Shown here: positions 6,826 through 63,650 of the stretch, in pieces
Layout of the letters: the number at the start of each line of letters is the position of its first letter
How positions within the stretch are numbered: position 1 is the stretch's first letter
Sequence record: OR062947.1
DNA: 64,000 nucleotides
Strand: one strand, 5' to 3'
From: Escherichia phage 348Ecol098PP
Notes under the pieces: generated by a model
The model's database searches: none
Told to the model about the DNA's origin: nothing
Seen by the model: only the letters and a program-made list of their open reading frames with translations
Position numbers and translations under genes: made by a program

Positions 6826-6860
6826 CAGTTTACATAAAGATGATGGTGTGTTACTATCAT
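6826..6860 (+). promoter_or_regulatory. early sigma70-type promoter (GTTTAC ... tactat)
   Basis: GTTTACA -35-like box, about 18 nt spacer, -10-like tactat, partial inverted repeat; precedes ORF 6892. Confidence 0.5.
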
Positions 6861-6891
6861 CCTATCAAATAAACAGCCTCAAGGAAATAAA

Positions 6892-7203
6892 ATGAAAACT
6901 TATCAAGAGTTTATCGCTGAAGCTACTAAAGCCGATAAAAATTTTATTATTAACACCACCGGTCCGTTAGATGATGAATACGCTAATGCTATTATTAAGT
7001 CAATTTCTAATCAAGGCGTTGAAGTAACAAATTTCGAATATAAGAAAAATGATACTTATATGATAATTAGTATCAAAAAAGGTTCAAAGGCTAAAATTAA
7101 ATCTGCATTTGGTGTTATGCGAGTCGACCAAATCGATAACCACGATTTTTCACAAACAGGGGCCAAACGCCAAAACACCATTTCTTCTAAAGGCATAAAA
7201 TAA
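6892..7203 (+). CDS. internal-protein-like protein with capsid targeting sequence
   Basis: N-terminus MKTYQEFIAE = T4 internal protein capsid targeting sequence (CTS). Confidence 0.75.
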   Translation: MKTYQEFIAEATKADKNFIINTTGPLDDEYANAIIKSISNQGVEVTNFEYKKNDTYMIISIKKGSKAKIKSAFGVMRVDQIDNHDFSQTGAKRQNTISSKGIK

Positions 7204-7242
7204 TTTACAACTTGATAGGACTACTATATCATAGTCCTATCA
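7204..7242 (+). promoter_or_regulatory. early promoter inside perfect inverted repeat (PeSL-like)
   Basis: ATTTACA then 9-bp inverted repeat ataggacta/tagtcctat flanking the -10 region. Confidence 0.55.
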
Positions 7243-7264
7243 AAATAACCAAATGGAACCTAAA

Positions 7265-7528
7265 ATGAAAACTTTCAACGAATTCATCTCAGAATCGTCT
7301 GGTGTGAAAATTAACAAAGCGGTCAATCAGGTTATTGCTGATATTCTTAATTTGTATAACATTGACTTAACTCCGCATATCACGCTTGGTAACAAACGAA
7401 ACTTTTTCATATTTGACACATCCGAACTTGATGAAAATCAGTTCAATAACATTCAACGTTTTGCGAATGATAAAGGTCTTCGACACGAGCCTGGTGGCTA
7501 TAAAAAATACGCAATATATTTGAAATAA
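7265..7528 (+). CDS. internal-protein-like protein with CTS
   Basis: Starts MKTFNEFISE (CTS pattern); SD upstream. Confidence 0.7.
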   Translation: MKTFNEFISESSGVKINKAVNQVIADILNLYNIDLTPHITLGNKRNFFIFDTSELDENQFNNIQRFANDKGLRHEPGGYKKYAIYLK

Positions 7529-7529
7529 A

Positions 7530-7572
7530 GGTATACAAGCCTATAGGGATATGTTATAGTAGTCCTATCAAA
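7530..7572 (+). promoter_or_regulatory. early promoter / PeSL-like cassette
   Basis: gtatacaa ... tgttatagtagtcctatc, same cassette family. Confidence 0.45.
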
Positions 7573-7597
7573 ACAAATGAGTAAATGGAGAAATAAA

Positions 7598-8438: not shown

Positions 8439-8954
8439 ATGAATATTTGTTTAGGCAGTACAATTCCTAAGGGTTACGTAATTGATGTCACTACTTGGGA
8501 AAATGACGGCGACAACTATAAAACCAAAACATTATTTGGTGTAGAAGAGCATGAGCTCCAACAGTTTAAATATCTCTTGAAGAAATTTAAGAGTCGTCAT
8601 TCTAGCACTAAAGCTGAACGTTACTGTGGTAATACACCATTCAGTGATTGCTCGCTTTTAATCTATGAATACTTGGTTGAAGGACTGTTCTCAGACCAGC
8701 TTTATCCAGAATTCATTAAAAAGGTCTTTGGTATTGAAGTCGACCTTGGTGATAAATCTGAAGAAGACGAAGCCCGCGTATTCGACCTGTTCTTTGTGAA
8801 AGGCGATGAGGTATCTCAAGGACTTATTGATATTCTTGGCTATGCTTCTGAATACTACGACTATGATTTCTTGCGTGTAGTTGAACGTGTTGAATTCGCT
8901 TATATTGAAGAAGAAATTGTTTTGCCGACTGTTAAAATGATTGATTTGCTTTAA
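8439..8954 (+). CDS. hypothetical acidic protein
   Basis: 171-aa ORF. Confidence 0.6.
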   Translation: MNICLGSTIPKGYVIDVTTWENDGDNYKTKTLFGVEEHELQQFKYLLKKFKSRHSSTKAERYCGNTPFSDCSLLIYEYLVEGLFSDQLYPEFIKKVFGIEVDLGDKSEEDEARVFDLFFVKGDEVSQGLIDILGYASEYYDYDFLRVVERVEFAYIEEEIVLPTVKMIDLL

Positions 8955-9033
8955 GAATTATGTGTTATTATTAATTCATACCCTCTATTACCAAAGGTGC
9001 TCTAAAGTGCCTTTCATAATAGAAAGTTATTTA

Positions 9034-9107
9034 GGCCCTGTAGCTCAACGGTTAGCAGCAGTCCCCTCATAAGGGAAAGGTTACCAGTTCGAATCTGGTC
9101 TGGGTCA
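9034..9107 (+). tRNA. tRNA with CAU anticodon (Ile2 or Met)
   Basis: Hand-folded cloverleaf: acceptor GGCCCTG/CTGGGTC (one mismatch), D-loop with GG, anticodon loop CTCATAA, T-arm ACCAG-TTCGAAT-CTGGT; no encoded CCA. Confidence 0.6.
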
Positions 9108-9113
9108 TATATT

Positions 9114-9189
9114 CGAGGCATAGCTCAGAAGGAAGAGCAAGGACCTTCTAAGTCCTAGGTCGTAGGTTCGATCCCTACTGTCTCGACCA
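9114..9189 (+). tRNA. tRNA-Arg (anticodon UCU)
   Basis: Hand-folded: acceptor CGAGGCA/TGTCTCG, D-arm GCTC-AGAAGGAA-GAGC, anticodon loop CTTCTAA, T-arm GTAGG-TTCGATC-CCTAC, encoded CCA. Confidence 0.8.
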
Positions 9190-9815: not shown

Positions 9816-9854
9816 AACACTTACTTAGTAGGTGGAAACCCCGACAAGGTATAT

Positions 9855-9883
9855 AGCCCCTTCCGAAAGGTTGGGGCTTTTTT
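9855..9883 (+). terminator. rho-independent terminator
   Basis: agccccttccgaaaggttggggc hairpin followed by TTTTTT; same hairpin recurs at 25116. Confidence 0.7.
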
Positions 9884-9884
9884 G

Positions 9885-9892
9885 TATAAATA
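9885..9892 (+). promoter_or_regulatory. late promoter TATAAATA
   Basis: Exact TATAAATA about 35 nt upstream of CTS-protein gene 9928. Confidence 0.45.
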
Positions 9893-10559: not shown

Positions 10560-10578
10560 GGGGACTTCGGTCCCCTTT
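10560..10578 (+). terminator. rho-independent terminator (TTCG tetraloop)
   Basis: ggggac-ttcg-gtcccc followed by TTT. Confidence 0.65.
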
Positions 10579-10604
10579 AGGGGGTCTATAACTTACTGAA
10601 AAAG

Positions 10605-10645
10605 TTGTTTACTTCTTCCCTAGATGTGTTACTATAGACCTATCA
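10605..10645 (+). promoter_or_regulatory. early promoter
   Basis: GTTTAC ... gtgttactat before ORF 10664. Confidence 0.5.
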
Positions 10646-10976: not shown

Positions 10977-11010
10977 GATGTACAAGCACCAAGGATGGTG
11001 ATACTATAGA
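10977..11010 (+). promoter_or_regulatory. early promoter (atgatgtaca subfamily)
   Basis: TGTACA -35-like, -10-like tactat; related cassettes at 29408, 31368, 32388, 63061. Confidence 0.45.
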
Positions 11011-11037: not shown

Positions 11038-11202
11038 ATGACTACTTTAATTATTTGGTTCGATGAAAATGAAGAAACATACTGTGTGAATATTGGTGAA
11101 AGTCCAATGCCTGAATTTGAATCCTCAGATAAAAACTCTGTTGTATCTTGGGCTGAAGGTTATAAAGCAGCTAAAGGTGACGTTGAAATAATTTACATCT
11201 AA
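11038..11202 (+). CDS. small hypothetical protein (54 aa)
   Basis: ORF below track cutoff; SD agaggag before ATG; promoter upstream. Confidence 0.45.
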   Translation: MTTLIIWFDENEETYCVNIGESPMPEFESSDKNSVVSWAEGYKAAKGDVEIIYI

Positions 11203-11225
11203 GTAAGTTTATGTTATAGTAGTCC
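11188..11225 (+). promoter_or_regulatory. early promoter / PeSL-like cassette
   Basis: atttaca ... tgttatagtagtcctatc. Confidence 0.45.
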
Positions 11226-11248: not shown

Positions 11249-11476
11249 ATGGCTAAAGTTAGTATTGATGTCGTTGATTATGAATACACCGAAGAAGTTA
11301 TTCGCAACCGTCACCCTGAAGTTCGTATCGATTCAGCCCAAGATTCCAAGTTCTGGACAACTGAGCTTAATCTGAGTGGTCCTTATGAAGCTGTTAAGAA
11401 GTTCATGGTTGAAGAATACTGCGAAGGCATGCACCCGGAAGACGCCAAGTTTTATGTCAATTTGATTAAAAAATAA
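11249..11476 (+). CDS. hypothetical protein
   Basis: 75-aa ORF. Confidence 0.6.
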   Translation: MAKVSIDVVDYEYTEEVIRNRHPEVRIDSAQDSKFWTTELNLSGPYEAVKKFMVEEYCEGMHPEDAKFYVNLIKK

Positions 11477-11524
11477 TTTACAAACTCTTGAGAGCAGAGT
11501 ATAATGCTCTCATTGGATAATAAA
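11477..11524 (+). promoter_or_regulatory. early promoter TTTACA-17-TATAAT within inverted repeat; duplicated cassette
   Basis: Canonical -35/-10 spacing; inverted repeat gagagca/tgctctc around -10; 45-nt identical copy at 40957-41001. Confidence 0.65.
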
Positions 11525-11546
11525 CCACCAATTGAAAGGTAATAAT

Positions 11547-13162: not shown

Positions 13163-13192
13163 GTTTACGCTTCTCAAATGATTAGTTATAAT
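13163..13192 (+). promoter_or_regulatory. early promoter GTTTAC-N18-TATAAT
   Basis: Direct read. Confidence 0.55.
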
Positions 13193-14049: not shown

Positions 14050-14090
14050 AGTTTACAACAAGATAGGGCTATGTTATAGTAGTCCTATCA
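14050..14090 (+). promoter_or_regulatory. early promoter / PeSL
   Basis: GTTTACA ... atagggcta tgttatag tagtcctat. Confidence 0.5.
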
Positions 14091-15343: not shown

Positions 15344-15385
15344 CTGTTTACGCAATTATAGGACTATGTTATAGTAGTCCTATTA
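15344..15385 (+). promoter_or_regulatory. early promoter inside perfect inverted repeat (PeSL)
   Basis: GTTTAC, inverted repeat ataggacta/tagtcctat flanking tgttatag. Confidence 0.55.
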
Positions 15386-16876: not shown

Positions 16877-17109
16877 GTATAGCAATTTACGTTAAATCAG
16901 AATCATGTGATAGTTATCTGTACACATACGATAAAGATGTGTCAGAAGAAAAAATCAAAGACGACCTTAATATGGACCTTGATATGTTCTGTCCTATTGC
17001 AGATTACAAACTTGCGGTCTCTAATAGTGAAAGTCCATCTAAAGAAACGCGCATTGAAGAATTTATGTCCGAATTAATGGCCAAATCATGGGACCGAGAT
17101 GATGAGTAA
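16873..17109 (+). CDS. hypothetical protein
   Basis: ATGA overlap start. Confidence 0.5.
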   Translation: MSIAIYVKSESCDSYLYTYDKDVSEEKIKDDLNMDLDMFCPIADYKLAVSNSESPSKETRIEEFMSELMAKSWDRDDE

Positions 17110-17557: not shown

Positions 17558-17591
17558 GTAATAAATACCTCCTATAAACGTGGGAGGTATT

Positions 17592-18359: not shown

Positions 18360-18412
18360 GTTTACTTCCTCCAAGGGTTTTGATACTATACATTCATCAA
18401 CTACTTGGAGGA
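18360..18412 (+). promoter_or_regulatory. early promoter in stem-loop whose 3-prime arm carries the SD (PeSL)
   Basis: GTTTAC; inverted repeat tcctccaag/cttggagga; SD for denV inside 3-prime arm. Confidence 0.5.
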
Positions 18413-18416
18413 AATT

Positions 18417-19100: not shown

Positions 19101-19130
19101 GTTTACGCTTAAGTATTAATATGGTATAAT
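19101..19130 (+). promoter_or_regulatory. early promoter GTTTAC-N18-TATAAT
   Basis: Direct read. Confidence 0.55.
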
Positions 19131-19161: not shown

Positions 19162-19476
19162 ATGAAAACGTATAAAGAATTTATTGCAGAATCCGCCAAC
19201 CAACGCGTTGAAGGTGGTTATATTTGGATTGAACAAGTTGAGCCACCGAGCCGCACTTCTACAGGTAAATGGAAAATTACTGTTGACGGTCCTGGCGGTA
19301 AACGTAGGACTCTTAAAGAAATTAATGGGTACTATGAAGAAGCTCTTTCGGATGCAGGAACTTACATGATGCAAATCATGATTAAAAACCCTGAAAACCG
19401 TTTTGCAGCTAAAGTCTTCCGTCGTATTGGTAATAAACTTTATGATGCATACTCTAAAAACTTCCCTAAAGAATAA
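19162..19476 (+). CDS. internal-protein-like protein with CTS (ipIII-like)
   Basis: Starts MKTYKEFIAE. Confidence 0.7.
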   Translation: MKTYKEFIAESANQRVEGGYIWIEQVEPPSRTSTGKWKITVDGPGGKRRTLKEINGYYEEALSDAGTYMMQIMIKNPENRFAAKVFRRIGNKLYDAYSKNFPKE

Positions 19477-21912: not shown

Positions 21913-21917
21913 AGTAG

Positions 21918-21965
21918 TTTACTTCTCCTCTAGTTGTGTTACTATAGACCTGTCAACTAGAGGAG
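21918..21965 (+). promoter_or_regulatory. early promoter in 12-bp perfect inverted repeat (PeSL)
   Basis: GTTTAC; ctcctctagttg / caactagaggag; 3-prime arm carries SD of regB. Confidence 0.55.
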
Positions 21966-21973
21966 AAATCAAA

Positions 21974-25109: not shown

Positions 25110-25115
25110 TTTACT

Positions 25116-25143
25116 AGCCCCTTCCGAAAGGTTGGGGCTTTTT
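25116..25143 (+). terminator. rho-independent terminator (copy of 9855 hairpin)
   Basis: agccccttccgaaaggttggggc + T-run, identical to 9855-9883. Confidence 0.7.
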
Positions 25144-25154
25144 GGCATCTATCA

Positions 25155-25206
25155 GTTTACTTCTCCTCAGGTTGTGTTATAGTAAACCTTACTTACTAGA
25201 GGAGAA
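25155..25206 (+). promoter_or_regulatory. early promoter / PeSL with SD in 3-prime arm
   Basis: GTTTAC; inverted repeat ttctcctc/gaggagaa. Confidence 0.5.
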
Positions 25207-25210
25207 CGTT

Positions 25211-25390
25211 ATGTCACGTAAAGAAAAAATTTCTAAGTTAATGTTTTTGATTGAAGAGTACGCTAATGCGGTATCTGATTGGGAAAATGCTCATGGTTGC
25301 GAAGATGGAGACATCGACATTAACAGAGCTATGAAAAAGATGGCTGATACGCACACCGAATTGCAAATGTATGTTAACGAGATTATGTGA
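25211..25390 (+). CDS. small hypothetical protein
   Basis: Internal ATG with SD gaggag. Confidence 0.5.
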   Translation: MSRKEKISKLMFLIEEYANAVSDWENAHGCEDGDIDINRAMKKMADTHTELQMYVNEIM

Positions 25391-25397
25391 GGACATT

Positions 25398-25607
25398 ATG
25401 CTTTACGATTATACTGGAAAATCTGAAGACGGTGTACTTGAACTTTTACCTGAAAGTGCTGAAGATGATGATATGACGACGGTGATGTTTTGTAAAAATG
25501 GCCCTGGGGATAAGGGATGGATTTATCTTCGTCAAGAAAATGACTTAATTGTTTTGGACCCTAAACAAGTTGAAGAACTTTATCAACATTTAAAACACAA
25601 TCGGTAG
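25398..25607 (+). CDS. hypothetical acidic protein
   Basis: ORF with SD. Confidence 0.5.
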   Translation: MLYDYTGKSEDGVLELLPESAEDDDMTTVMFCKNGPGDKGWIYLRQENDLIVLDPKQVEELYQHLKHNR

Positions 25608-25645
25608 TTTACAACTTGGTAGGACTATGTTATAGTAGTCCTACC
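25607..25645 (+). promoter_or_regulatory. early promoter in 10-bp perfect inverted repeat (PeSL)
   Basis: GTTTACA; ggtaggacta/tagtcctacc flanking tgttatag. Confidence 0.55.
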
Positions 25646-25663
25646 AAAACAAATGGAGAACAA

Positions 25664-25774: not shown

Positions 25775-25887
25775 ACCTGTGAACAAGCTAATAAATTGAT
25801 AGATCTTATTTAATTTTTATAGAAATCAGGTTGATGCTCGTCAGAATTATTTGGTGAATTTTGTTGAAACTTTAATTGGTGAATAAT

Positions 25888-28204: not shown

Positions 28205-28224
28205 GGGGACCTTCGGGTCCCTTT
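28205..28224 (+). terminator. rho-independent terminator
   Basis: gggacc-ttcg-ggtccc + TTT. Confidence 0.65.
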
Positions 28225-28249: not shown

Positions 28250-28285
28250 AGTGTACATGCTTTTAGGATATGTTATTATAGACCT
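28250..28285 (+). promoter_or_regulatory. early promoter
   Basis: gtgtaca ... tgttattatagacctatc. Confidence 0.45.
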
Positions 28286-29724: not shown

Positions 29725-29762
29725 TGTTTACAAGGTCTATGGTTATGTTATTATAGACCTAT
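29725..29762 (+). promoter_or_regulatory. early promoter / PeSL
   Basis: GTTTACA; inverted repeat aggtctat/atagacct around tgttattat. Confidence 0.55.
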
Positions 29763-30371: not shown

Positions 30372-31367
30372 ATGAGCATTACATCTGATGCGGTAAAACA
30401 TGAAATTAACGGTTTATGTGCTTCACAGATTAAAGTGTGGTTTAAAGACCATAACGATCGCAGAGCACTTAATTATGAACAAATTGCTATCCAAGTTCAT
30501 CAATTACTGGTTAGTAAATTTGATTTTCATATGCCGTCTGAAATCTATACTAATCTGCCGCGAGCACTTATTAAAGCGTGTAAAGGTTATGGAAAATCAA
30601 TGGCTGATGGAATCTTCAGCGCGCTGAATAAACTTAACGTTCTGTCGATGATTAACTCTAACAACATCCTGCGTAATCTAGGACGTACTGATTTGTTCGG
30701 CCGTGAACAGTGTAAAATGCCTTTGAAATGGATTGTTGCTCATCTTAACGAGAACCAAACACGTTTTATGGCCGTAACAGCACGCTTACAAATGGGCCTA
30801 GATCGTCAGATGAACTTTAAAACTCATCCACGTTATTCAGGTTCAACTGACTTTTATAAATGTGAGCTTCAAAAGGTTGCAGGTAAAACTGTCTTAGTAG
30901 TTCGTGTAACGTTTGAAGGACGACGTCAAGGATATTTTGACATAATCGGCTCCGGGCTTAAACATTGTGGATTTATCGACGAAGTTGATATCAAGCGAGA
31001 CGGCATTGGATACCGTATTGGATATGTTTGTACTCTTAAAGAAGAGATTTCAGGACCAGCACCAGGACTAAAAGACGTTAGATATAAAGACGAGCTCGTT
31101 GAAGAAATAAAAGAAGTTGAATATGATATCAACCAAGAAGATGCTCTTAAAGACCTTATTGATGAACCGAACCAAGACGTTATTCCTGTTCAGAAATTTG
31201 AATCAAAACATGCTGAGCAAATCAAATACTTTGAAGCTTTGATTAACGAACTTAATGTAACTATTCAACAGACTGACGATGAAATCTCACGATTAGCAGG
31301 TTTAAACGGTAAAAATAAAACAGAACGAGCTAATCTTATTCAGGTAGTAAAACTTCTTAAGGAATGA
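30372..31367 (+). CDS. hypothetical protein with C-terminal coiled coil (array member 1)
   Basis: 331 aa. Confidence 0.6.
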   Translation: MSITSDAVKHEINGLCASQIKVWFKDHNDRRALNYEQIAIQVHQLLVSKFDFHMPSEIYTNLPRALIKACKGYGKSMADGIFSALNKLNVLSMINSNNILRNLGRTDLFGREQCKMPLKWIVAHLNENQTRFMAVTARLQMGLDRQMNFKTHPRYSGSTDFYKCELQKVAGKTVLVVRVTFEGRRQGYFDIIGSGLKHCGFIDEVDIKRDGIGYRIGYVCTLKEEISGPAPGLKDVRYKDELVEEIKEVEYDINQEDALKDLIDEPNQDVIPVQKFESKHAEQIKYFEALINELNVTIQQTDDEISRLAGLNGKNKTERANLIQVVKLLKE

Positions 31368-31396
31368 TGTACAACCAAGGATGGTTGGAGTATAAT
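31368..31396 (+). promoter_or_regulatory. early promoter TGTACA-N17-TATAAT (duplicated cassette)
   Basis: 27-nt tacaaccaaggatggttggagtataat identical at 32390-32416. Confidence 0.6.
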
Positions 31397-31422
31397 AAAT
31401 TTTTCAACATGAGGAATATAAA

Positions 31423-32382: not shown

Positions 32383-32387
32383 AATAG

Positions 32388-32416
32388 TTTACAACCAAGG
32401 ATGGTTGGAGTATAAT
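32388..32416 (+). promoter_or_regulatory. early promoter GTTTACA-N17-TATAAT (duplicated cassette)
   Basis: Near-identical to 31368-31396. Confidence 0.6.
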
Positions 32417-32444
32417 GAATCTATCTTAACGAGAGGAAAATATT

Positions 32445-34800: not shown

Positions 34801-34830
34801 GTTTACAACGACGAAGAAACGTGTTATGAT
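34801..34830 (+). promoter_or_regulatory. early promoter
   Basis: GTTTACA ... tgttatgat. Confidence 0.45.
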
Positions 34831-35089: not shown

Positions 35090-35563
35090 ATGTTATTATC
35101 AGGCGCAAAATATAAAGAAGAAAAACAAAAATTTTATGATGCACAGAATGGTAAGTGTCCTATTTGCCACCGTGAATTAGACCCTGATGTTCAAGGTAAC
35201 CATCTTGACCACGACCATGAATTAAACGGGCCAAAAGCAGGTAGAGTTCGTGGGTTACTCTGTAATCTGTGCAATGCAGCAGAAGGTCAAATGAAGCATA
35301 AGTTCAACCGTTCCGGTCTTAAAAGACGTGATGTCGACTACCTCGAATGGCTTGAAGCTCTTCTTGCTTATTTGAAACAAGATTATTCTGATAATAATAT
35401 CCATCCTAATTTTGTTCCAGACAAAACTAAAGAGTTCTCAAGACTAGGTAAAGAGGAAATGATGTCCGAGATGCTTCAAAGAGGATTTGAATATAATGAA
35501 TCTGATACCAAAACACAATTAATAGCTTCATTCAAAAAGCAGCTTAGAAAGAGTTTAAAATGA
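35090..35563 (+). CDS. 49: endonuclease VII (Holliday junction resolvase) gp49
   Basis: 157 aa; CxxC...HLDHDHELNGPKAG...CNLCN zinc/H-N-H-like motifs; recalled T4 gp49. Confidence 0.9.
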   Translation: MLLSGAKYKEEKQKFYDAQNGKCPICHRELDPDVQGNHLDHDHELNGPKAGRVRGLLCNLCNAAEGQMKHKFNRSGLKRRDVDYLEWLEALLAYLKQDYSDNNIHPNFVPDKTKEFSRLGKEEMMSEMLQRGFEYNESDTKTQLIASFKKQLRKSLK

Positions 35564-36381
35564 ATGTAGTATATAAACTATCATTTATTAATAGAATTAA
35601 TGCTAAAACCCCACCATATTATTACATTGGAAGTAAAACCAATTGCACTTTTGATGGAACGAATATTATTGATAAAAATGGTAAATTTTATTATTCGTCT
35701 TCGTCATCTTCCGAATTTCAAAAAGCCTTATTGAAAGAAACGCCGAAAGTTGAAATATTATATTTTCAATTAGTCGGAGATGAACAAATAACTAGCATTG
35801 AAGCTGAATTTCAAAAGAATATAGAAAAAGATGTATGGAATAAAGAGTATTTTAATTTAGCATATGCTGATGGCAAATTTACGACATATGGTATTTCTCC
35901 TTCTAAAGAAACTAGAGAAAAACAATCAATAACCATGATTAAAAGAAATCGTAATAAAGGCAAAAATCATGGATTTTATGGAAAGCATCATACTAATTTA
36001 GCCAGAAAGAAAATATCAGAAGCTTCTAAAAAATACTGGAAAGAAAATCCGCATCGTGGATTTTCGCATACAAAGGAAGCTAAAATTAAAATTGGAATTT
36101 CATCTTCTATCAGGCATAAAGGAAGTGGAAATCCGATGTATGGTGTAAAACCTTGGAAAACTCCGAACGCAATTAAATCTGGTACTTGTATATTATGGTT
36201 AAAATACGCAGAAATTTTATATGATTATTTAGGTCCAGATTTTAAAAGTAAATCATCTATTTTTGCGGATTTAAACTTACCGAAATTTAGAATTGATAAT
36301 TTCATCAAAAGGTTTAAAATGGGTTGGAACCCATATTTAGACGAAGAATTTCAAAAGGATAAATTAGAATTATGTCTTTAG
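35560..36381 (+). CDS. GIY-YIG homing endonuclease (Seg / I-TevI-like) with NUMOD3-like repeats
   Basis: VYKLSFINRIN...YYYIGSKTN GIY-YIG motif; repeated GxxHxxExKxKIS motifs; strongly AT-rich. Confidence 0.75.
   Translation: MNVVYKLSFINRINAKTPPYYYIGSKTNCTFDGTNIIDKNGKFYYSSSSSSEFQKALLKETPKVEILYFQLVGDEQITSIEAEFQKNIEKDVWNKEYFNLAYADGKFTTYGISPSKETREKQSITMIKRNRNKGKNHGFYGKHHTNLARKKISEASKKYWKENPHRGFSHTKEAKIKIGISSSIRHKGSGNPMYGVKPWKTPNAIKSGTCILWLKYAEILYDYLGPDFKSKSSIFADLNLPKFRIDNFIKRFKMGWNPYLDEEFQKDKLELCL
35560..36381 (+). mobile_element. free-standing homing endonuclease gene between gene 49 and nrdD
   Basis: Same as CDS; composition differs from flanking genes. Confidence 0.6.
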
Positions 36382-39306: not shown

Positions 39307-39595
39307 AATTTATGGCATCCCTGAAGAAGTAGGACGTTGTCCGGGATGTTATACTGTTACAAAACTTTTAAAGGAGCTCAATGCTCCTTATACATTTTAT
39401 AAAGTCCTCACTAATAATGGTAAGATTGAATATGACCGTCCTTTAATCGTATCTCTTGCTAAACGTGCAGGATTCACTTCACTTAATATTCGTTATCCTG
39501 TCATATTTTTAAATGATAAGAAACAAAAGAATATTGCAGAGTTTAAAAAGTCCTTGATTTCATTAGGATATGACTCTGATATCATAGAAGATTGA
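39302..39595 (+). CDS. glutaredoxin-like protein (NrdH-like); start codon uncertain
   Basis: KIEIYGIPEEVGRCPGCYTVTKLL redox CPGC motif; no in-frame ATG after upstream stop, ATT at 39302. Confidence 0.5.
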   Translation: MEIYGIPEEVGRCPGCYTVTKLLKELNAPYTFYKVLTNNGKIEYDRPLIVSLAKRAGFTSLNIRYPVIFLNDKKQKNIAEFKKSLISLGYDSDIIED

Positions 39596-39619
39596 CCAGG
39601 CGGCGCCTGGTCAATCTTC
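39587..39619. repeat. 33-nt perfect palindrome
   Basis: gaagattgaccaggcg-g-cgcctggtcaatcttc; overlaps stop codon of glutaredoxin-like gene. Confidence 0.8.
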
Positions 39620-39704: not shown

Positions 39705-39750
39705 GTTTACATCCTCAATAGATGTGTTAAGATTAAACCATCTACTATAG
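39705..39750 (+). promoter_or_regulatory. early promoter (approximate)
   Basis: GTTTACA with imperfect inverted repeat. Confidence 0.4.
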
Positions 39751-39761
39751 AGGAAAATAAA

Positions 39762-40017: not shown

Positions 40018-40311
40018 ATGGGTAAAACGTATCGTCGTAAAGATTTGAAAGTTCGTGATTACGACTATTTTGGTAAACGTAAAGCTCCTGACGGTGTTAG
40101 CCACAGAGACATGGTTGAAAACATTTTCCGCTCAGATAAATGGAAACGTATGAAAGGCGTTGATTCCGAAGTCAAGAATGAAATGAATCGACAACTTCGA
40201 AAAGAAGTTCGTAAGTTGAAAAAAGATGTTTACAGTAAAGAAGATTATGATTATAATACTTCTCATACTGAAGCCAAACGTAAAGCTAACGAATGTTATC
40301 GTTACAGTTGA
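40018..40311 (+). CDS. hypothetical basic protein
   Basis: SD gaggt before ATG. Confidence 0.55.
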   Translation: MGKTYRRKDLKVRDYDYFGKRKAPDGVSHRDMVENIFRSDKWKRMKGVDSEVKNEMNRQLRKEVRKLKKDVYSKEDYDYNTSHTEAKRKANECYRYS

Positions 40312-40652: not shown

Positions 40653-40692
40653 ATGTACAACGATAGGAAGACATGTTATTATCTTCCTATCG
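40653..40692 (+). promoter_or_regulatory. early promoter in 10-bp perfect inverted repeat (PeSL)
   Basis: atgtaca; gataggaaga/tcttcctatc. Confidence 0.55.
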
Positions 40693-40713
40693 TCTTAAAA
40701 TGAGGAAAATATC

Positions 40714-40953
40714 ATGGAACAAGAATTAGACATTACTACATCGAAAAAACGTCTTGAAGTCGTAGTGAATGGTTCAACTATTAAGTTTGTATATGACACT
40801 TTAACTGATGCTATTACCGTTAGTTGTGGTGGAAAGGCTTTTAGTCTAGATTCTACTGAAAACAAATACCCGTTCTATAAAGGTATCTTTGATATGGGTG
40901 TTGATATCAGTGTTCGTCAAGCAAACTATTTACATTATCTTATCACGAAATAA
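40714..40953 (+). CDS. hypothetical protein
   Basis: 79-aa ORF. Confidence 0.55.
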   Translation: MEQELDITTSKKRLEVVVNGSTIKFVYDTLTDAITVSCGGKAFSLDSTENKYPFYKGIFDMGVDISVRQANYLHYLITK

Positions 40954-41001
40954 TGCACAAACTCTTGAGAGCAGAGTATAATGCTCTCATTGGATAATAA
41001 A
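40954..41001 (+). promoter_or_regulatory. early promoter, second copy of the 11477 cassette
   Basis: 45-nt identity with 11480-11524. Confidence 0.65.
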
Positions 41002-41019
41002 ACAACCGAGGAAAATAAT

Positions 41020-44776: not shown

Positions 44777-46461
44777 AATCATTTAAATTAAATCGTGTTC
44801 GTTATCAAAACATCATGTCGGTAGGTGGGAATCCTATTGACATCCAATTAGATAAAGTCCAAAAGACATTAATCACTGGTAAAAATGGTGGTGGTAAATC
44901 TACGATGTTAGAAGCCATTACTTTCGGACTTTTCGGTAAACCATTTCGTGATGTTAAGAAAGGGCAAATCATTAATAGCACGAACAAGAAAGAGCTCTTA
45001 GTTGAGCTTTGGATGGAATTCGATGGTAAAAAATACTTCATTAAACGTGGCCAAAAGCCCAATATTTTCGAAATCTCCGTTGACGGTGTTCGTCTCGATG
45101 AATCTGCCAGCAGTCGTGACTTCCAAGAAGAATTTGAACGTAGCATCGGAATGTCATACGCGTCTTTTAAACAAATCGTTGTGCTTGGGACGGCAGGGTA
45201 TACCCCTTTCATGGCTCTTAGCACCCCTGCTCGTAGAAAACTTGTCGAAGACCTTTTAGAAGTCGGCACACTCGCTGAAATGGATAAAATCAATAAGTCT
45301 CAAGTTCGAGAACTTAATTCCCAGGGACAAGTTCTCGATGCCAAGAAAGATGGTGTTATCCAACAAATTAAGATTTATAACGAGAATATCGAACGTCAAA
45401 AGAAATTATCTGGTGATAATGTAGCGCGTCTACAGAATATGTATGATGACCTAGCCAAAGAAGCTCGTTCATTAAAAGCAGAAATCGAAGAAGCTAATGA
45501 GCGACTACTTAATATCGTTCTTGATGAAGACCCTACTGAGGCATTCAACAAGATCGGACAAGAAGCATTCTTGATTAAATCTAAAATCGACTCATATAAC
45601 AAAGTTATTAAGATGTATCATGACGGTGGCACATGTCCTACTTGTGCGTCACAGTTGCACCAGGGTGACCCTATTGTCTCTAAGATTACCGATAAGCTTC
45701 ATGAATGTAATCACTCATTCGAGCAACTTACATGTCACAGAGATAATCTGAGTGTCCTAGTGGACGAATATAGAGCTAATGTTAAGACTAAACAGGACCT
45801 TGCATCTGATATTCGTACCAAGAAACAAGCAATGATTGCCACTATTGATAAAGCTAAGAAAGTTAAAGCTGCAATAGAACAAGCCTCGGCGGAATTTATC
45901 GACCATGCCGATGAGATAGCTTTGCTTCAAAAAGAACTTGATAAAATCATTAAAACAAAATCAGATATCGTTCTTGAAAAATACCATCGTGGTATTATCA
46001 CAGATATGTTAAAAGATTCTGGTATTAAAGGTGCTATCATTAAAAAATACGTGCCTCTGTTCAACAAGCAGATTAACCATTATCTTAAAATCATGGAAGC
46101 TGATTACGTGTTTTCTATTGACGAAGAATTCAATGAATCTATAAAATCACGTGGCCGCGAAGAGTTCAGTTATGCTTCATTTAGTCAAGGTGAAAAAGCA
46201 CGTATCGATATCGCGTTATTGTTTACATGGCGAGATATTGCTGAAAAGGTCTCTGGTGTTAGAATCAATACATTAATTATGGACGAAGTCATGGATTCCG
46301 CGACTGATTCTGAAGGTATTAAAGCTATTTCAACAATTCTTAACTCTCTAACCGATGCAAACGTGTTTATAATTAGTCACAGAGACCATGACCCACAAGC
46401 TTATGGACAGCATTTGCAAATGAGCAAAGTTGGACGATTTACTGTAATGAAAGCCTCTTAA
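44773..46461 (+). CDS. 46: recombination endonuclease subunit gp46 (Rad50-like ATPase)
   Basis: 562 aa; Walker A GKNGGGKST, zinc hook CPTC, signature and Walker B near C-terminus. Confidence 0.9.
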   Translation: MKSFKLNRVRYQNIMSVGGNPIDIQLDKVQKTLITGKNGGGKSTMLEAITFGLFGKPFRDVKKGQIINSTNKKELLVELWMEFDGKKYFIKRGQKPNIFEISVDGVRLDESASSRDFQEEFERSIGMSYASFKQIVVLGTAGYTPFMALSTPARRKLVEDLLEVGTLAEMDKINKSQVRELNSQGQVLDAKKDGVIQQIKIYNENIERQKKLSGDNVARLQNMYDDLAKEARSLKAEIEEANERLLNIVLDEDPTEAFNKIGQEAFLIKSKIDSYNKVIKMYHDGGTCPTCASQLHQGDPIVSKITDKLHECNHSFEQLTCHRDNLSVLVDEYRANVKTKQDLASDIRTKKQAMIATIDKAKKVKAAIEQASAEFIDHADEIALLQKELDKIIKTKSDIVLEKYHRGIITDMLKDSGIKGAIIKKYVPLFNKQINHYLKIMEADYVFSIDEEFNESIKSRGREEFSYASFSQGEKARIDIALLFTWRDIAEKVSGVRINTLIMDEVMDSATDSEGIKAISTILNSLTDANVFIISHRDHDPQAYGQHLQMSKVGRFTVMKAS

Positions 46462-47174
46462 TGAGGCTTATGTTTACAGTTATCAAAATGCCAACGACGC
46501 ATATTAGCAGGGATCCCTATTTTATCGCAATGAGGACATTTAATTTTCTTGTCCTCTTTTTTCTTTCTGTTAGGATTTGATTTACAGAATTTTATATGCG
46601 GCTTTAACGCCGATAACTTAGTAGTTAAGCCACAAAACGGACAAGAATCTTCTTTCCAAATTTTCGTGGCCATGGTTTTAATTATTTTATCTTTTGTTTC
46701 TTGATCAAGTTTTACTATTTTAGGCGTAGGGCCTTGTTTACAGTTATCAAAATGCCAACGTCTCATGTTTCCTTCAGTGCCGGTTAAACCGCAGTGTGGA
46801 CATGTAATCTTTGGTTTATTTTTTGCCGACTCAGACATTTTCTTACGAGTTTCAGCAGTGAATTCTTTGTTCTTTTGAACTTCTTGATTCTTACGTCGAA
46901 GCCATCCAAATAATTTGTTTTTGCTTCTATCTGCTTTAGGAGATGAGATAGTCATCATACGAGCAGCATATATTAAAGAGGCATTATCTGGATGGATTTT
47001 TACCAACAGTTGATGTGCCAAATAATGTTCTTCCGGTGTTAAGTCTACTAAGTTTAAAGCATCATCACTTCCACCTAAACATTGTGGTATAATGTGATGA
47101 CGTTCTGTATAACCATCTAAACTTCTTGATTTAGCATTGGTGATAAGCTTTTCGTATATTGAGTTATAATTCAT
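46458..47174 (-). CDS. HNH homing endonuclease with three C-terminal Cys-His repeats
   Basis: HNH motif ERHHIIPQCLGGSDDALNLVDLTPEEHYLAH; repeated CPHCG...MRRWHFDNCK; only minus-strand gene in an all-plus region. Confidence 0.75.
   Translation of the reverse strand: MNYNSIYEKLITNAKSRSLDGYTERHHIIPQCLGGSDDALNLVDLTPEEHYLAHQLLVKIHPDNASLIYAARMMTISSPKADRSKNKLFGWLRRKNQEVQKNKEFTAETRKKMSESAKNKPKITCPHCGLTGTEGNMRRWHFDNCKQGPTPKIVKLDQETKDKIIKTMATKIWKEDSCPFCGLTTKLSALKPHIKFCKSNPNRKKKEDKKIKCPHCDKIGIPANMRRWHFDNCKHKPH
46458..47174 (-). mobile_element. free-standing HNH homing endonuclease gene between 46 and 45.2
   Basis: Opposite orientation to neighbours; internal 30-nt direct repeats (46471 and 46737). Confidence 0.6.
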
Positions 47175-50575: not shown

Positions 50576-50581
50576 AGCAAT

Positions 50582-50599
50582 GGGACTTCGGTCCCATTT
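50582..50599 (+). terminator. hairpin after regA (terminator and/or gene 43 translational operator)
   Basis: gggac-ttcg-gtccc followed by aTTT, 58 nt before gene 43. Confidence 0.45.
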
Positions 50600-63013: not shown

Positions 63014-63019
63014 TAAAAA

Positions 63020-63038
63020 GGAGACTTCGGTCTCCTTT
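63020..63038 (+). terminator. rho-independent terminator
   Basis: ggagac-ttcg-gtctcc + TTT. Confidence 0.65.
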
Positions 63039-63101
63039 CGGGGTTTACATCTTCCTCTAGGCATGATATGATGTACTTACACCAACCAAGAGGAGAACAA
63101 A

Positions 63102-63419
63102 ATGAAAACCATCGATTGTAAAGCAGAATTTAAGATTTTTTATCACGGTTCAAGTAGTTCAGCTAACATCGAAAACATGCTTTGTCCTCCTGAGGAAACA
63201 GGAGTTCTGTCTGAAACCGGACGTAAGAAAAACTTGGATCGTGTATTCTTTACTGAAGATATCGGTTTAGCAAAGATTTATGCAGGACGAGCAGCACGCT
63301 CTTATGGAGGTGAACCACGTCTCTATCGAGTAATTTCTCCGGTAGACGTAGTTCAAATGAATAATACTAAAGGTGCTACAGTTTATCACGCTGAATGGGC
63401 ATTTTGTGAGGAAATATGA
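63102..63419 (+). CDS. hypothetical protein
   Basis: 105-aa ORF with SD agaggag. Confidence 0.55.
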   Translation: MKTIDCKAEFKIFYHGSSSSANIENMLCPPEETGVLSETGRKKNLDRVFFTEDIGLAKIYAGRAARSYGGEPRLYRVISPVDVVQMNNTKGATVYHAEWAFCEEI

Positions 63420-63616: not shown

Positions 63617-63650
63617 GTTTACAAGCACCACATACTGTGTTACTATCTTT
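63617..63650 (+). promoter_or_regulatory. early promoter
   Basis: GTTTACA ... gtgttactat. Confidence 0.5.

Follow-up and report, generated by a model that had tools for sequence, protein, structure and literature searches.

Early promoters joined to stem-loops, the promoter-early stem-loop elements (PeSLs) of T4-type phages, were described by Arbiol et al. (2010; PMC2839356); in the accessible part of that paper the stem-loop lies mostly between −35 and −10 or overlaps the −10 box. The class was extended to T4/PST and KVP40/nt-1, with the motif TTTACW-N17-TAYWAT and stems of the form AGNA-loop-TCNT, in the corresponding part of Comeau et al. (2014; PMC4122927). For RB69, 57–58 early promoters have been predicted, and the accompanying text points out a GTTTAC box, an A-rich tract upstream and, from −3 to −1, C residues (Nolan et al., 2006; PMC1524935). 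Here we analyse elements of this kind in 64,000 nucleotides of Escherichia phage 348Ecol098PP (OR062947.1; this whole stretch is called the window), in which a first-pass annotation had pointed to promoters embedded in inverted repeats and had compared them with PeSLs. The comparison is apt: the forms of promoter and stem both match those given in the accessible text of the two PeSL papers. The promoters, as predictions in RB69, and the composite PeSL architecture are already known. What the present analysis adds is evidence that the stems are selected for pairing, probably as sense RNA, and that one subclass appears to be built so as to hide the ribosome-binding site from read-through transcription.

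A family of putative early promoters

The family was defined by a matrix of two blocks, one for the −35 box and the 12 nt before it, the other for the −10 box and the 5 nt before it. At a cut-off score of at least 14 it finds 31 sites in the window, all on the + strand; the best score on the − strand is 13.8, and ten random sequences gave about 0.4 sites each at the same cut-off. Addition by hand of the denV site at 18360 gave a set of 32. Exact matches to GTTTAC-N16-19-TATAAT number six, as compared with 0.11 expected. A generic sigma-70 consensus scan, which returned 74 sites against 67.5 expected, failed to separate signal from noise; the promoter signal is therefore specific to the family.

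The consensus of the sites is aaaaaA...TTTACaa...taTGtTATaATa.accTatcaaa, with the extended −10 motif TGn present in 25 of the 32. Upstream of the −35 box, where the consensus has aaaaaA, the A content over 24 nt shows a modest excess (38.5% against 32.6% window-wide). Thirty of the 32 sites fall within the variable early region between 6.8 and 41.1 kb, and none in the replication-gene block from 41.1 to 63 kb. Approximately 24 sites stand immediately before a gene, with leaders of 20–32 nt, which bears out the earlier count of at least 20 intergenic sites having a GTTTAC-like −35 box, a spacer of 17–18 nt and a −10 box. Some eight, located within coding sequence, are doubtful.

Over most of its length the window is ∼96% identical to the coliphage RB69, a Mosigvirus (megablast). 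With the RB69 annotation reoriented, gene order on the + strand runs 1, 57A, 57B, ipI, tRNAs, e.x, nudE, e, denV, then vs.x, regB, tk, rI, nrdC.x, 49, nrdD, 55.x, 55, and finally 47, 46, 45, 44, 62, regA, 43; the + strand is therefore the direction of early and middle transcription in a T-even phage. When the early promoter (Pe) coordinates of Nolan et al. (2006; PMC1524935, Additional file 3) were transferred to the window by way of the RB69 locus, a Pe prediction coincided with 24 of the 30 matrix sites that fall in the RB69-aligned part. T4 counterparts of the elements precede ipI, trna.4, e.7, denV, regB and mobD.2. The GenBank records of RB69 and T4 contain no promoter features, and a literature search found no T4 transcription-start or 3′-end datasets. 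As judged from motif, position and orthology, the sites are probably sigma-70-dependent T4-type early promoters of an RB69-like T-even phage.

Inverted repeats and their pairing

About half of the promoters carry an inverted repeat. A perfect stem of at least 8 bp joining the spacer to the region after the −10 box is present at nine of 31 promoters, as compared with 3.7% of mismatched promoter pairs, and none of 20,000 permutations of the window promoters reached the observed mean pairing. Perfect repeats with stems of at least 9 bp and loops of 3–32 nt number 17 in the window against 10.1 ± 3.7 in random sequence; six of these bracket a promoter −10 box and a seventh is the gene e hairpin. 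Predicted folding, expressed as a z score relative to shuffled sequences, gave a mean of −1.97 for segments running from the −35 box to the start codon (11 of 28 below −2), and of +0.09 for 60-nt segments preceding promoter-less gene starts (8 of 80 below −2; Mann–Whitney p = 9e-6).

In one class of hairpin, a stem of 8–12 bp closes over the −10 box and ends at about +1 to +5 (promoters 7203, 11476, 14051, 15346, 25607, 29726, 40653 and 40953, with 6828 as a weaker case). The perfect −10-flanking repeats that the first-pass annotation had placed at 7215, 15358, 25618, 40662 and 21925 are all present, with coordinates displaced by at most 3 nt; verified lengths are 9 bp at 15358, 12 bp at 25616 and 40660, and 14 bp at 21923. 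In a second class, the 5′ arm directly follows the −35 box and is an anti-Shine-Dalgarno sequence (denV, regB and the genes starting at 25211, 39762 and 63102). That the 3′ arm can hold the Shine-Dalgarno sequence of the next gene had also been proposed, and is real at 18404–18413, 21954–21967 and 25199–25206. Three promoters (10978, 31367 and 32387) have a small hairpin wholly within the spacer.

For the anti-Shine-Dalgarno class, folding predicts a marked difference between RNA that reads through the promoter and RNA that starts at it. For denV (18360), the predicted probability of an unpaired Shine-Dalgarno sequence is 0.00 in RNA that reads through and 0.38 in RNA started at the promoter; the corresponding values are 0.00 and 0.71 both for regB (21917) and for 25155, 0.01 and 0.59 for 39705, and 0.03 and 0.65 for 63043. 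The idea that the stem-loops modulate translation gains support in silico for this class. An internal positive control was provided by the gene e hairpin of T4, which is present at 17564–17591 over the ribosome-binding site of e. The loop of this hairpin contains TATAAA, which is late-promoter-like.

Related phages show the same arrangements with other sequences. In T4, hairpins close over the −10 box before ipI, ipII, ipIII, e.7, trna.4 and mobD.2, and anti-Shine-Dalgarno stems precede denV and regB, with arm sequences that differ from those of the window. Of 38 matrix promoters from T4 and four lineages further removed, 12 have stems of at least 8 bp, and there too arms taken from the same promoter pair far better than arms taken from different ones. 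In an independent set of 70 distinct promoters from IMG/VR contigs, selected solely by GTTTAC...TGATACTAT, 24 have such stems as compared with 3% of mismatched pairs, and here too 0 of 20,000 permutations reached the observed mean.

The two arms change together. Variants between lineages include GGACTA/TAGTCC, GGTCTA/TAGACC, GGGCTA/TAGCCC, GGGTTA/TAACCC and AGGGTA/TACCCT, the 5′ arm tracking the sequence after the −10 box. An attempt to align the regions upstream of regB and denV with MAFFT, followed by RNAalifold, left the arms out of register and yielded no useful consensus, and the comparison was instead anchored on GGAG by hand. At least two Watson–Crick pair types were then found outside the GGAG core at six positions of the regB stem, across four lineages, and at four positions of the denV stem. 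Between the 25607 hairpin and that of T4 mobD.2 there are four double compensatory changes, with pairing kept, and the 40953 hairpin differs from its RB69 orthologue (CGAGAGA / TCTCTCG) on both sides at two pairs. The geometry recurs at orthologous sites even though RegB proteins of the lineages are only 40–77% identical. On these sequence comparisons, the stems are selected for pairing and not for sequence.

The mismatches give an indication of the strand on which pairing matters. Read on the sense strand, non-Watson–Crick positions in the stems are G–T in 18 cases and A–C in four in the first set, and G–T in four and A–C in none in the independent set; the counts are small and include orthologous stems that are not independent, and removal of orthologous repeats by hand left about 16 against 4. 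The preference for G–T over A–C fits a structure formed from the sense strand, whether as RNA or as single-stranded DNA, but does not fit a two-strand cruciform. The level at which the stems are selected is probably the sense-strand RNA.

Breakpoints, proposed mechanism and alternatives

The first-pass annotation had further linked the elements to modular gene shuffling and had suggested comparing cassette boundaries with gene-content breakpoints in relatives. Alignment of the window with ten Mosigvirus relatives gave 55 distinct breakpoint ends between 3.2 and 50.7 kb. Twenty of these fall in the intervals from −10 to +97 relative to a −35 start, which make up 6.8% of the sequence (p = 2e-10), and nine are in the promoter core (p = 2e-5). 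The promoter at 7531 is the right-hand end of replacements in six relatives, and the −35 box at 13163 is the exact end of a 250-bp insertion, also in six. Breakpoints are found at 10601 and 10656 near the 10607 promoter and at 19190 near the 19101 promoter, and replacements end at 21913 and, in three relatives, at 28258. Exact junctions inside elements occur in two relatives, L003 and L021. In L003, the cassette 7218–7575 stands directly upstream of 15357, with both junctions inside the hairpin and −10 core, so that a chimeric promoter results; homology to the same relative ends at 25627, inside the 25607 element.

Whole-gene changes necessarily end at gene junctions, and the fair null is therefore provided by other gene junctions. 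Measured in this way, the association is much less striking. A breakpoint is present at 13 of 26 promoter-bearing junctions and at 23 of 77 promoter-less ones, a roughly twofold excess that is not significant (one-sided p = 0.054). If only junctions whose spacer has 25 nt or more are counted, the figures are 13 of 24 and 9 of 25 (p = 0.16). Strong PeSL-driven shuffling was accordingly set aside as a conclusion. What stands of the earlier proposal is that several breakpoints fall exactly inside elements: these serve as crossover sites in particular events, and their excess over other junctions is modest.

Near-identical cassettes also stand before unrelated genes within the window. The stretches 11460–11527 and 40937–41004, 29 kb apart, are 88% identical over 68 nt, and 31363–31405 and 32383–32425 are 86% identical over 43 nt. 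This similarity suggests copying from promoter to promoter, or gene conversion.

We propose the following mechanism. Each cassette consists of an A-rich tract, GTTTAC, a spacer of 17–18 nt, a TGn-extended TAnnnT, a leader of ∼22 nt and a Shine-Dalgarno sequence, and would serve one small early gene. According to the T4 rule, transcription would start ∼7 nt after the −10 box, at the A of ATCAAA. The 5′ arm would lie upstream of this start, so that the hairpin could form only in read-through RNA and never in the promoter's own transcript. The latter would lack the 5′ arm and begin with an open A-rich leader of ∼22 nt, whereas RNA arriving from upstream promoters would contain both arms and fold. 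In the anti-Shine-Dalgarno class, the read-through fold would bury the ribosome-binding site, and translation of the gene would be limited to its own early transcript and to the time during which early promoters are active. Hairpins over the −10 box would leave the ribosome-binding site free; most likely, they would mark where the message from upstream ends on its 3′ side, either by attenuation or by stopping 3′ exonucleases, and this boundary role is the weakest step of the proposal. Finally, as direct repeats of 40–70 nt dispersed across the variable region, the cassettes would also be targets of homologous recombination, through which genes are deleted, swapped or relocated.

We regard this explanation as a whole, in which the elements would be early promoters, RNA hairpins active in read-through RNA and recombination substrates, as reasonably probable. 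The analysis itself shows the family of motifs, the repeats and the covariation of these, together with the folds predicted and the positions of the breakpoints. The start sites, folding in vivo, the effect on translation and the role of the hairpins over the −10 box are parts of the model that we infer.

Besides the small and partly non-independent mismatch counts, several observations tell against this explanation. A hairpin is lacking in half of the promoters. The 11191 promoter keeps the conserved sequence that follows the −10 box although it has no partner arm, and this sequence is therefore conserved as promoter consensus irrespective of pairing. The covariation rests on hand-anchored alignments, given that standard alignment with RNAalifold missed the stems, and the start sites are placed by the T4 rule of ∼7 nt after the −10 box. 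The hairpins over the −10 box lack a U-tract and were not terminator-like on either strand in a terminator scan, and their proposed boundary role is weak for that reason.

The best surviving alternative is that the stem-loops are terminators or attenuators that insulate cassettes from upstream transcription, as has been proposed for PeSLs, and that sequestration of the ribosome-binding site is incidental. In the accessible text of Arbiol et al. (2010; PMC2839356), one RB49/phi1 PeSL stem-loop lowered the expression of lacZ to an extent similar to that seen with the rrnB T1 terminator. The hairpins of the window are intergenic and on the 3′ side of upstream genes, and separate GC-rich UUCG hairpins followed by T-runs precede four promoters. 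Nevertheless, the hairpins that bracket the −10 box are AT-rich and are followed by A-rich, not U-rich, sequence, and none resembles a terminator on either strand. Moreover, the 3′ arm is the Shine-Dalgarno sequence in five cases and the stem covaries beyond GGAG, neither of which is predicted by a pure terminator. We believe this alternative to be unlikely.

A role at the DNA level would have a cruciform or single-strand hairpin form over the −10 box and either help to bring about early-promoter shut-off or attract a nuclease of the endonuclease VII type, generating recombination hot spots. How early promoters are shut off in T4 is described as unknown (PMC2988021, PMC3014915), the repeats are centred on the −10 box, several recombination junctions lie inside a repeat, and arms that vary in sequence while remaining paired fit recognition of structure rather than of sequence. 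The sense-strand preference for G–T over A–C is, however, an asymmetry that a two-strand cruciform does not predict; the anti-Shine-Dalgarno loops of 17–30 nt are unfavourable for cruciform extrusion, and the tie between the 3′ arm and the ribosome-binding site points to RNA. We consider a DNA-level role very unlikely.

We give as little credence to the view that the repeats have no function and are by-products of recombination between promoter copies, together with template-switch correction of near-palindromes. Templated correction of near-palindromes is established in T4. Cassettes have been exchanged between loci, as the 88% match of 11460–11527 with 40937–41004 and the chimeric promoter in L003 illustrate, and half of the promoters do without a stem. 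Against this, the geometry recurs with different arms at orthologous sites, across lineages with 40–77% RegB identity, the strand-asymmetric tolerance of G–T is not expected from templated correction, and the promoters are strongly enriched in stems as compared with the window elsewhere. We rejected a sequence-specific repressor operator, given that the arms differ between promoters and between phages: preservation of pairing but not of sequence argues against a sequence-specific protein site.

If we return to hairpins that act in read-through RNA, a wider hypothesis can be put forward, though tentatively: throughout the T-even phages, a selected 5′ arm hidden in the promoter spacer may make mRNA structure depend on the promoter of origin, with regB, denV and several small genes translated only from their own early transcripts. 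The early promoter of regB is shut off after 2–3 min, and regB needs tight regulation (PMC3014915); translation confined to its own transcript would therefore suit this gene. Should the hypothesis be true, synthesis of the proteins of all these genes would stop when early promoters are shut off, despite continuing read-through and middle transcripts. This would be a general layer of early-gene control, without description in the literature examined, and one factor in the sharp fall of early protein synthesis, which is poorly accounted for. If the anti-Shine-Dalgarno class works as predicted, RNA structure by itself would tie the expression of nucleases such as RegB and endonuclease V to the first minutes after infection. 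For an RB69-like phage, the early promoters and their hairpins have thereby been mapped with good support. The genes flanked by cassettes would be those most easily lost, swapped or moved, which is relevant to phage engineering and to variation of gene content in therapeutic T4-type phages.

Individual elements and comparison with known systems

Putative early promoters and promoter-like sites of the window, with their inverted repeats (5′ arm / 3′ arm). RBS, ribosome-binding site; z, predicted fold stability relative to shuffles; Pe, RB69 prediction of Nolan et al. (2006).
Position (strand)	−35 box	−10 box	Inverted repeat	Gene or context	RB69 Pe	Fold z
6828–6861 (+)	GTTTAC 6828–6833	TACTAT 6852–6857	over −10, weak: GATGAT 6839–6844 / ATCATC 6856–6861	internal-protein-like gene, start 6892; matrix score 32.9	Pe:77187	
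7203–7243 (+)	ATTTAC 7203–7208	TATCAT 7227–7232 (18-nt spacer)	around −10, perfect 12 bp: TTGATAGGACTA 7212–7223 / TAGTCCTATCAA 7232–7243	internal-protein-like gene at 7265; site singled out in the first-pass annotation	Pe:76812	−5.8
7531–7568 (+)	GTATAC	TATAGT 7555–7560	degraded stem only: ATAGG / CCTAT	tRNA.4-like gene	Pe:76459	
11476–11512 (+)	ATTTAC	TATAAT 11500–11505	over −10, 8 bp: TGAGAGCA 11489–11496 / TGCTCTCA 11505–11512			−4.1
14051–14089 (+)			over −10, 10 bp, one G–T pair: GATAGGGCTA 14062–14071 / TAGTCCTATC 14080–14089		Pe:69254	−3.8
15346–15383 (+)	GTTTAC	TATAGT 15370–15375	over −10, 9 bp: 15358–15366 / 15375–15383			−3.5
25607–25647 (+)	GTTTAC	TATAGT 25631–25636	over −10, perfect 12 bp: 25616–25627 / 25636–25647	mobD.2-like gene		−6.4
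29726–29760 (+)	GTTTAC	TATTAT 29749–29754	over −10, 8 bp: AGGTCTAT 29733–29740 / ATAGACCT 29753–29760	nrdC.8		−3.3
40653–40693 (+)	ATGTAC	TATTAT 40677–40682	over −10, perfect 12 bp: 40660–40671 / 40682–40693			−4.7
40953–40989 (+)	ATGCAC	TATAAT 40977–40982	over −10, 8 bp: 40966–40973 / 40982–40989	paralogue of the 11476 cassette		
18360–18413 (+)	GTTTAC	TACTAT 18384–18389	spacer arm TTCCTCCAAG 18366–18375 / RBS CTTGGAGGAA 18404–18413; covariation across phages	denV		−5.6
21917–21967 (+)	GTTTAC	TACTAT 21940–21945	anti-Shine-Dalgarno, 14 bp: TTCTCCTCTAGTTG 21923–21936 / CAACTAGAGGAGAA 21954–21967; compensatory changes in 4 lineages	regB		−5.0
25155–25206 (+)	GTTTAC	TATAGT 25178–25183	TTCTCCTC 25161–25168 / RBS GAGGAGAA 25199–25206	DUF7438 gene, start 25211		
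39705–39754 (+)	GTTTAC	TAAGAT 39728–39733	anti-Shine-Dalgarno, bulged: 39712–39724 / 39739–39754, including RBS GAGGA	DUF7290 gene, start 39762		−3.8
63043–63094 (+)	GTTTAC	TATGAT 63067–63072	TCCTCT 63053–63058 / RBS AGAGGA 63089–63094	gene at 63102		
10978–11007 (+)	ATGTAC	TACTAT	small, within spacer: CACCA-AGGA-TGGTG		Pe:72567	
31367–31396 (+)	ATGTAC	TATAAT	within spacer: AACCA-AGGA-TGGTT	nrdC.5		
32387–32416 (+)	GTTTAC	TATAAT	within spacer, same as 31367	nrdC.3		
10607–10635 (+)	GTTTAC	TACTAT 10630–10635		GC-rich UUCG hairpin and TTT just upstream, 10560–10575		
11191–11220 (+)	ATTTAC	TATAGT	complementary 5′ arm absent; consensus TAGTCCTATCAAA kept after −10	frd.3-like gene	Pe:72354	
13163–13192 (+)	GTTTAC	TATAAT	none			
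19101–19130 (+)	GTTTAC	TATAAT	none	internal-protein-like gene, 19162		
28251–28279 (+)	GTGTAC	TATTAT		nrdC.10; UUCG terminator-like hairpin upstream, ∼28205–28221		
63617–63646 (+)	GTTTAC	TACTAT	none	matrix site		
8944–8971 (+)				promoter-like, score 18.6; ∼60 nt upstream of tRNA-Met/tRNA-Arg	absent from list	
34801–34830 (+)				promoter-like, within open reading frame	Pe:48639	
40228–40257				promoter-like, similar to 34801	Pe:43242	
16885–16914 (+); 25715; 29411; 33364; 38262				doubtful matrix matches: coding sequence or no downstream start codon	none of the five in list	

A family of GC-rich hairpins, in which the loop is UUCG or GAAA and a T-run follows, has members at 10560–10575, ∼28205–28221, 50581–50596, 63017–63038, 9854–9887 and 25115–25148. 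Those just upstream of the promoters at 10607, 25155, 28251 and 63043 would represent a terminator-plus-promoter form; the UUCG hairpins were missed by the terminator finder because their T-runs are short. The one upstream of 25155 (25115–25148) is terminator-like and 94% identical to the copy at 9854 over 34 nt, and that upstream of 63043 is 63017–63038. The longest perfect inverted repeat of the window, at 39587–39619, has 15-bp arms and a 3-nt loop (GAAGATTGACCAGGC-GGC-GCCTGGTCAATCTTC) and lies ∼90 nt upstream of the 39705 promoter. About 60 nt downstream of the promoter-like site 25715, the window has a private deletion at 25809–25815, where every relative covering the point has ∼70 extra bases.

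An N-terminus of the form MKTYxEFIxE is common to seven small genes (starts at 6892, 7265, 9928, 18077, 18837, 19162 and 19502). It is encoded by a repeated stretch of 30–38 nt and resembles the targeting peptide of T-even internal head proteins; homology to relatives often stops ∼25–50 nt inside these genes. Two tRNA genes, Met-CAU and Arg-UCU (9034–9189), are the same as in RB69 and are the sole Rfam matches in the window. A 273-residue open reading frame with a NUMOD3 motif, which is typical of homing endonucleases, lies between 49 and nrdD (35560–36381, + strand) and is missing from RB69 and the other relatives covering the region. A second open reading frame, of 238 residues (46458–47174, − strand), has weak zinc-ribbon matches and an internal 77-nt repeat (46471–46547 / 46735–46811); relative to RB69 and four other relatives, it is an ∼800-bp insertion between 46 and 45.2.

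The promoters are the same as the T4 and RB69 early promoters of Nolan et al. (2006; PMC1524935) in consensus, including a −10 box that is GT-rich or TGn-extended and C residues shortly ahead of the start site, in strand and in their position upstream of small early genes. The window differs from RB69 itself in being another isolate, ∼96% identical, in which some cassettes have been swapped. Hairpins, stem-loops and inverted repeats receive no mention in that paper. With PeSLs, the elements share the succession of promoter, stem-loop, Shine-Dalgarno sequence and start codon and a location in hyperplastic regions near insertions, deletions and replacements, as set out in the accessible text of PMC2839356 and PMC4122927. 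The AGNA-loop-TCNT stem given there for T4/PST (PMC4122927) is matched by AGGACTA...TAGTCCT of the window. In contrast, the RB49 stems are G/C-rich and are assigned a terminator role in the available part of PMC2839356, whereas those of the window are AT-rich and have no U-tract. Within the same portions of the PeSL papers, translation is not discussed (the word occurs 0 times in the text of PMC2839356), and neither an anti-Shine-Dalgarno subclass nor covariation is described.

The T-even internal-protein loci are similar in that T4-type early promoters, accompanied by AT-rich stem-loops, flank their variable genes (Repoila et al., 1994, as cited in the accessible text of PMC2839356). Cassettes of this type in the window are 6828, 7203, 7531 and 19101, with gene swaps in relatives; compared with the loci described by Repoila et al. 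(1994, from the same partial text of PMC2839356), the elements of the window extend well beyond internal-protein loci. The closest precedent for the proposed control is provided by T4 e, soc, 49 and I-TevI (PMC3014915), in which the Shine-Dalgarno sequence is paired in long transcripts, and the shorter RNA from an internal promoter, lacking the 5′ arm, is translated. In those genes the internal promoter is late and expression is delayed; in the window the promoter would be early, and translation would be confined to the first minutes.

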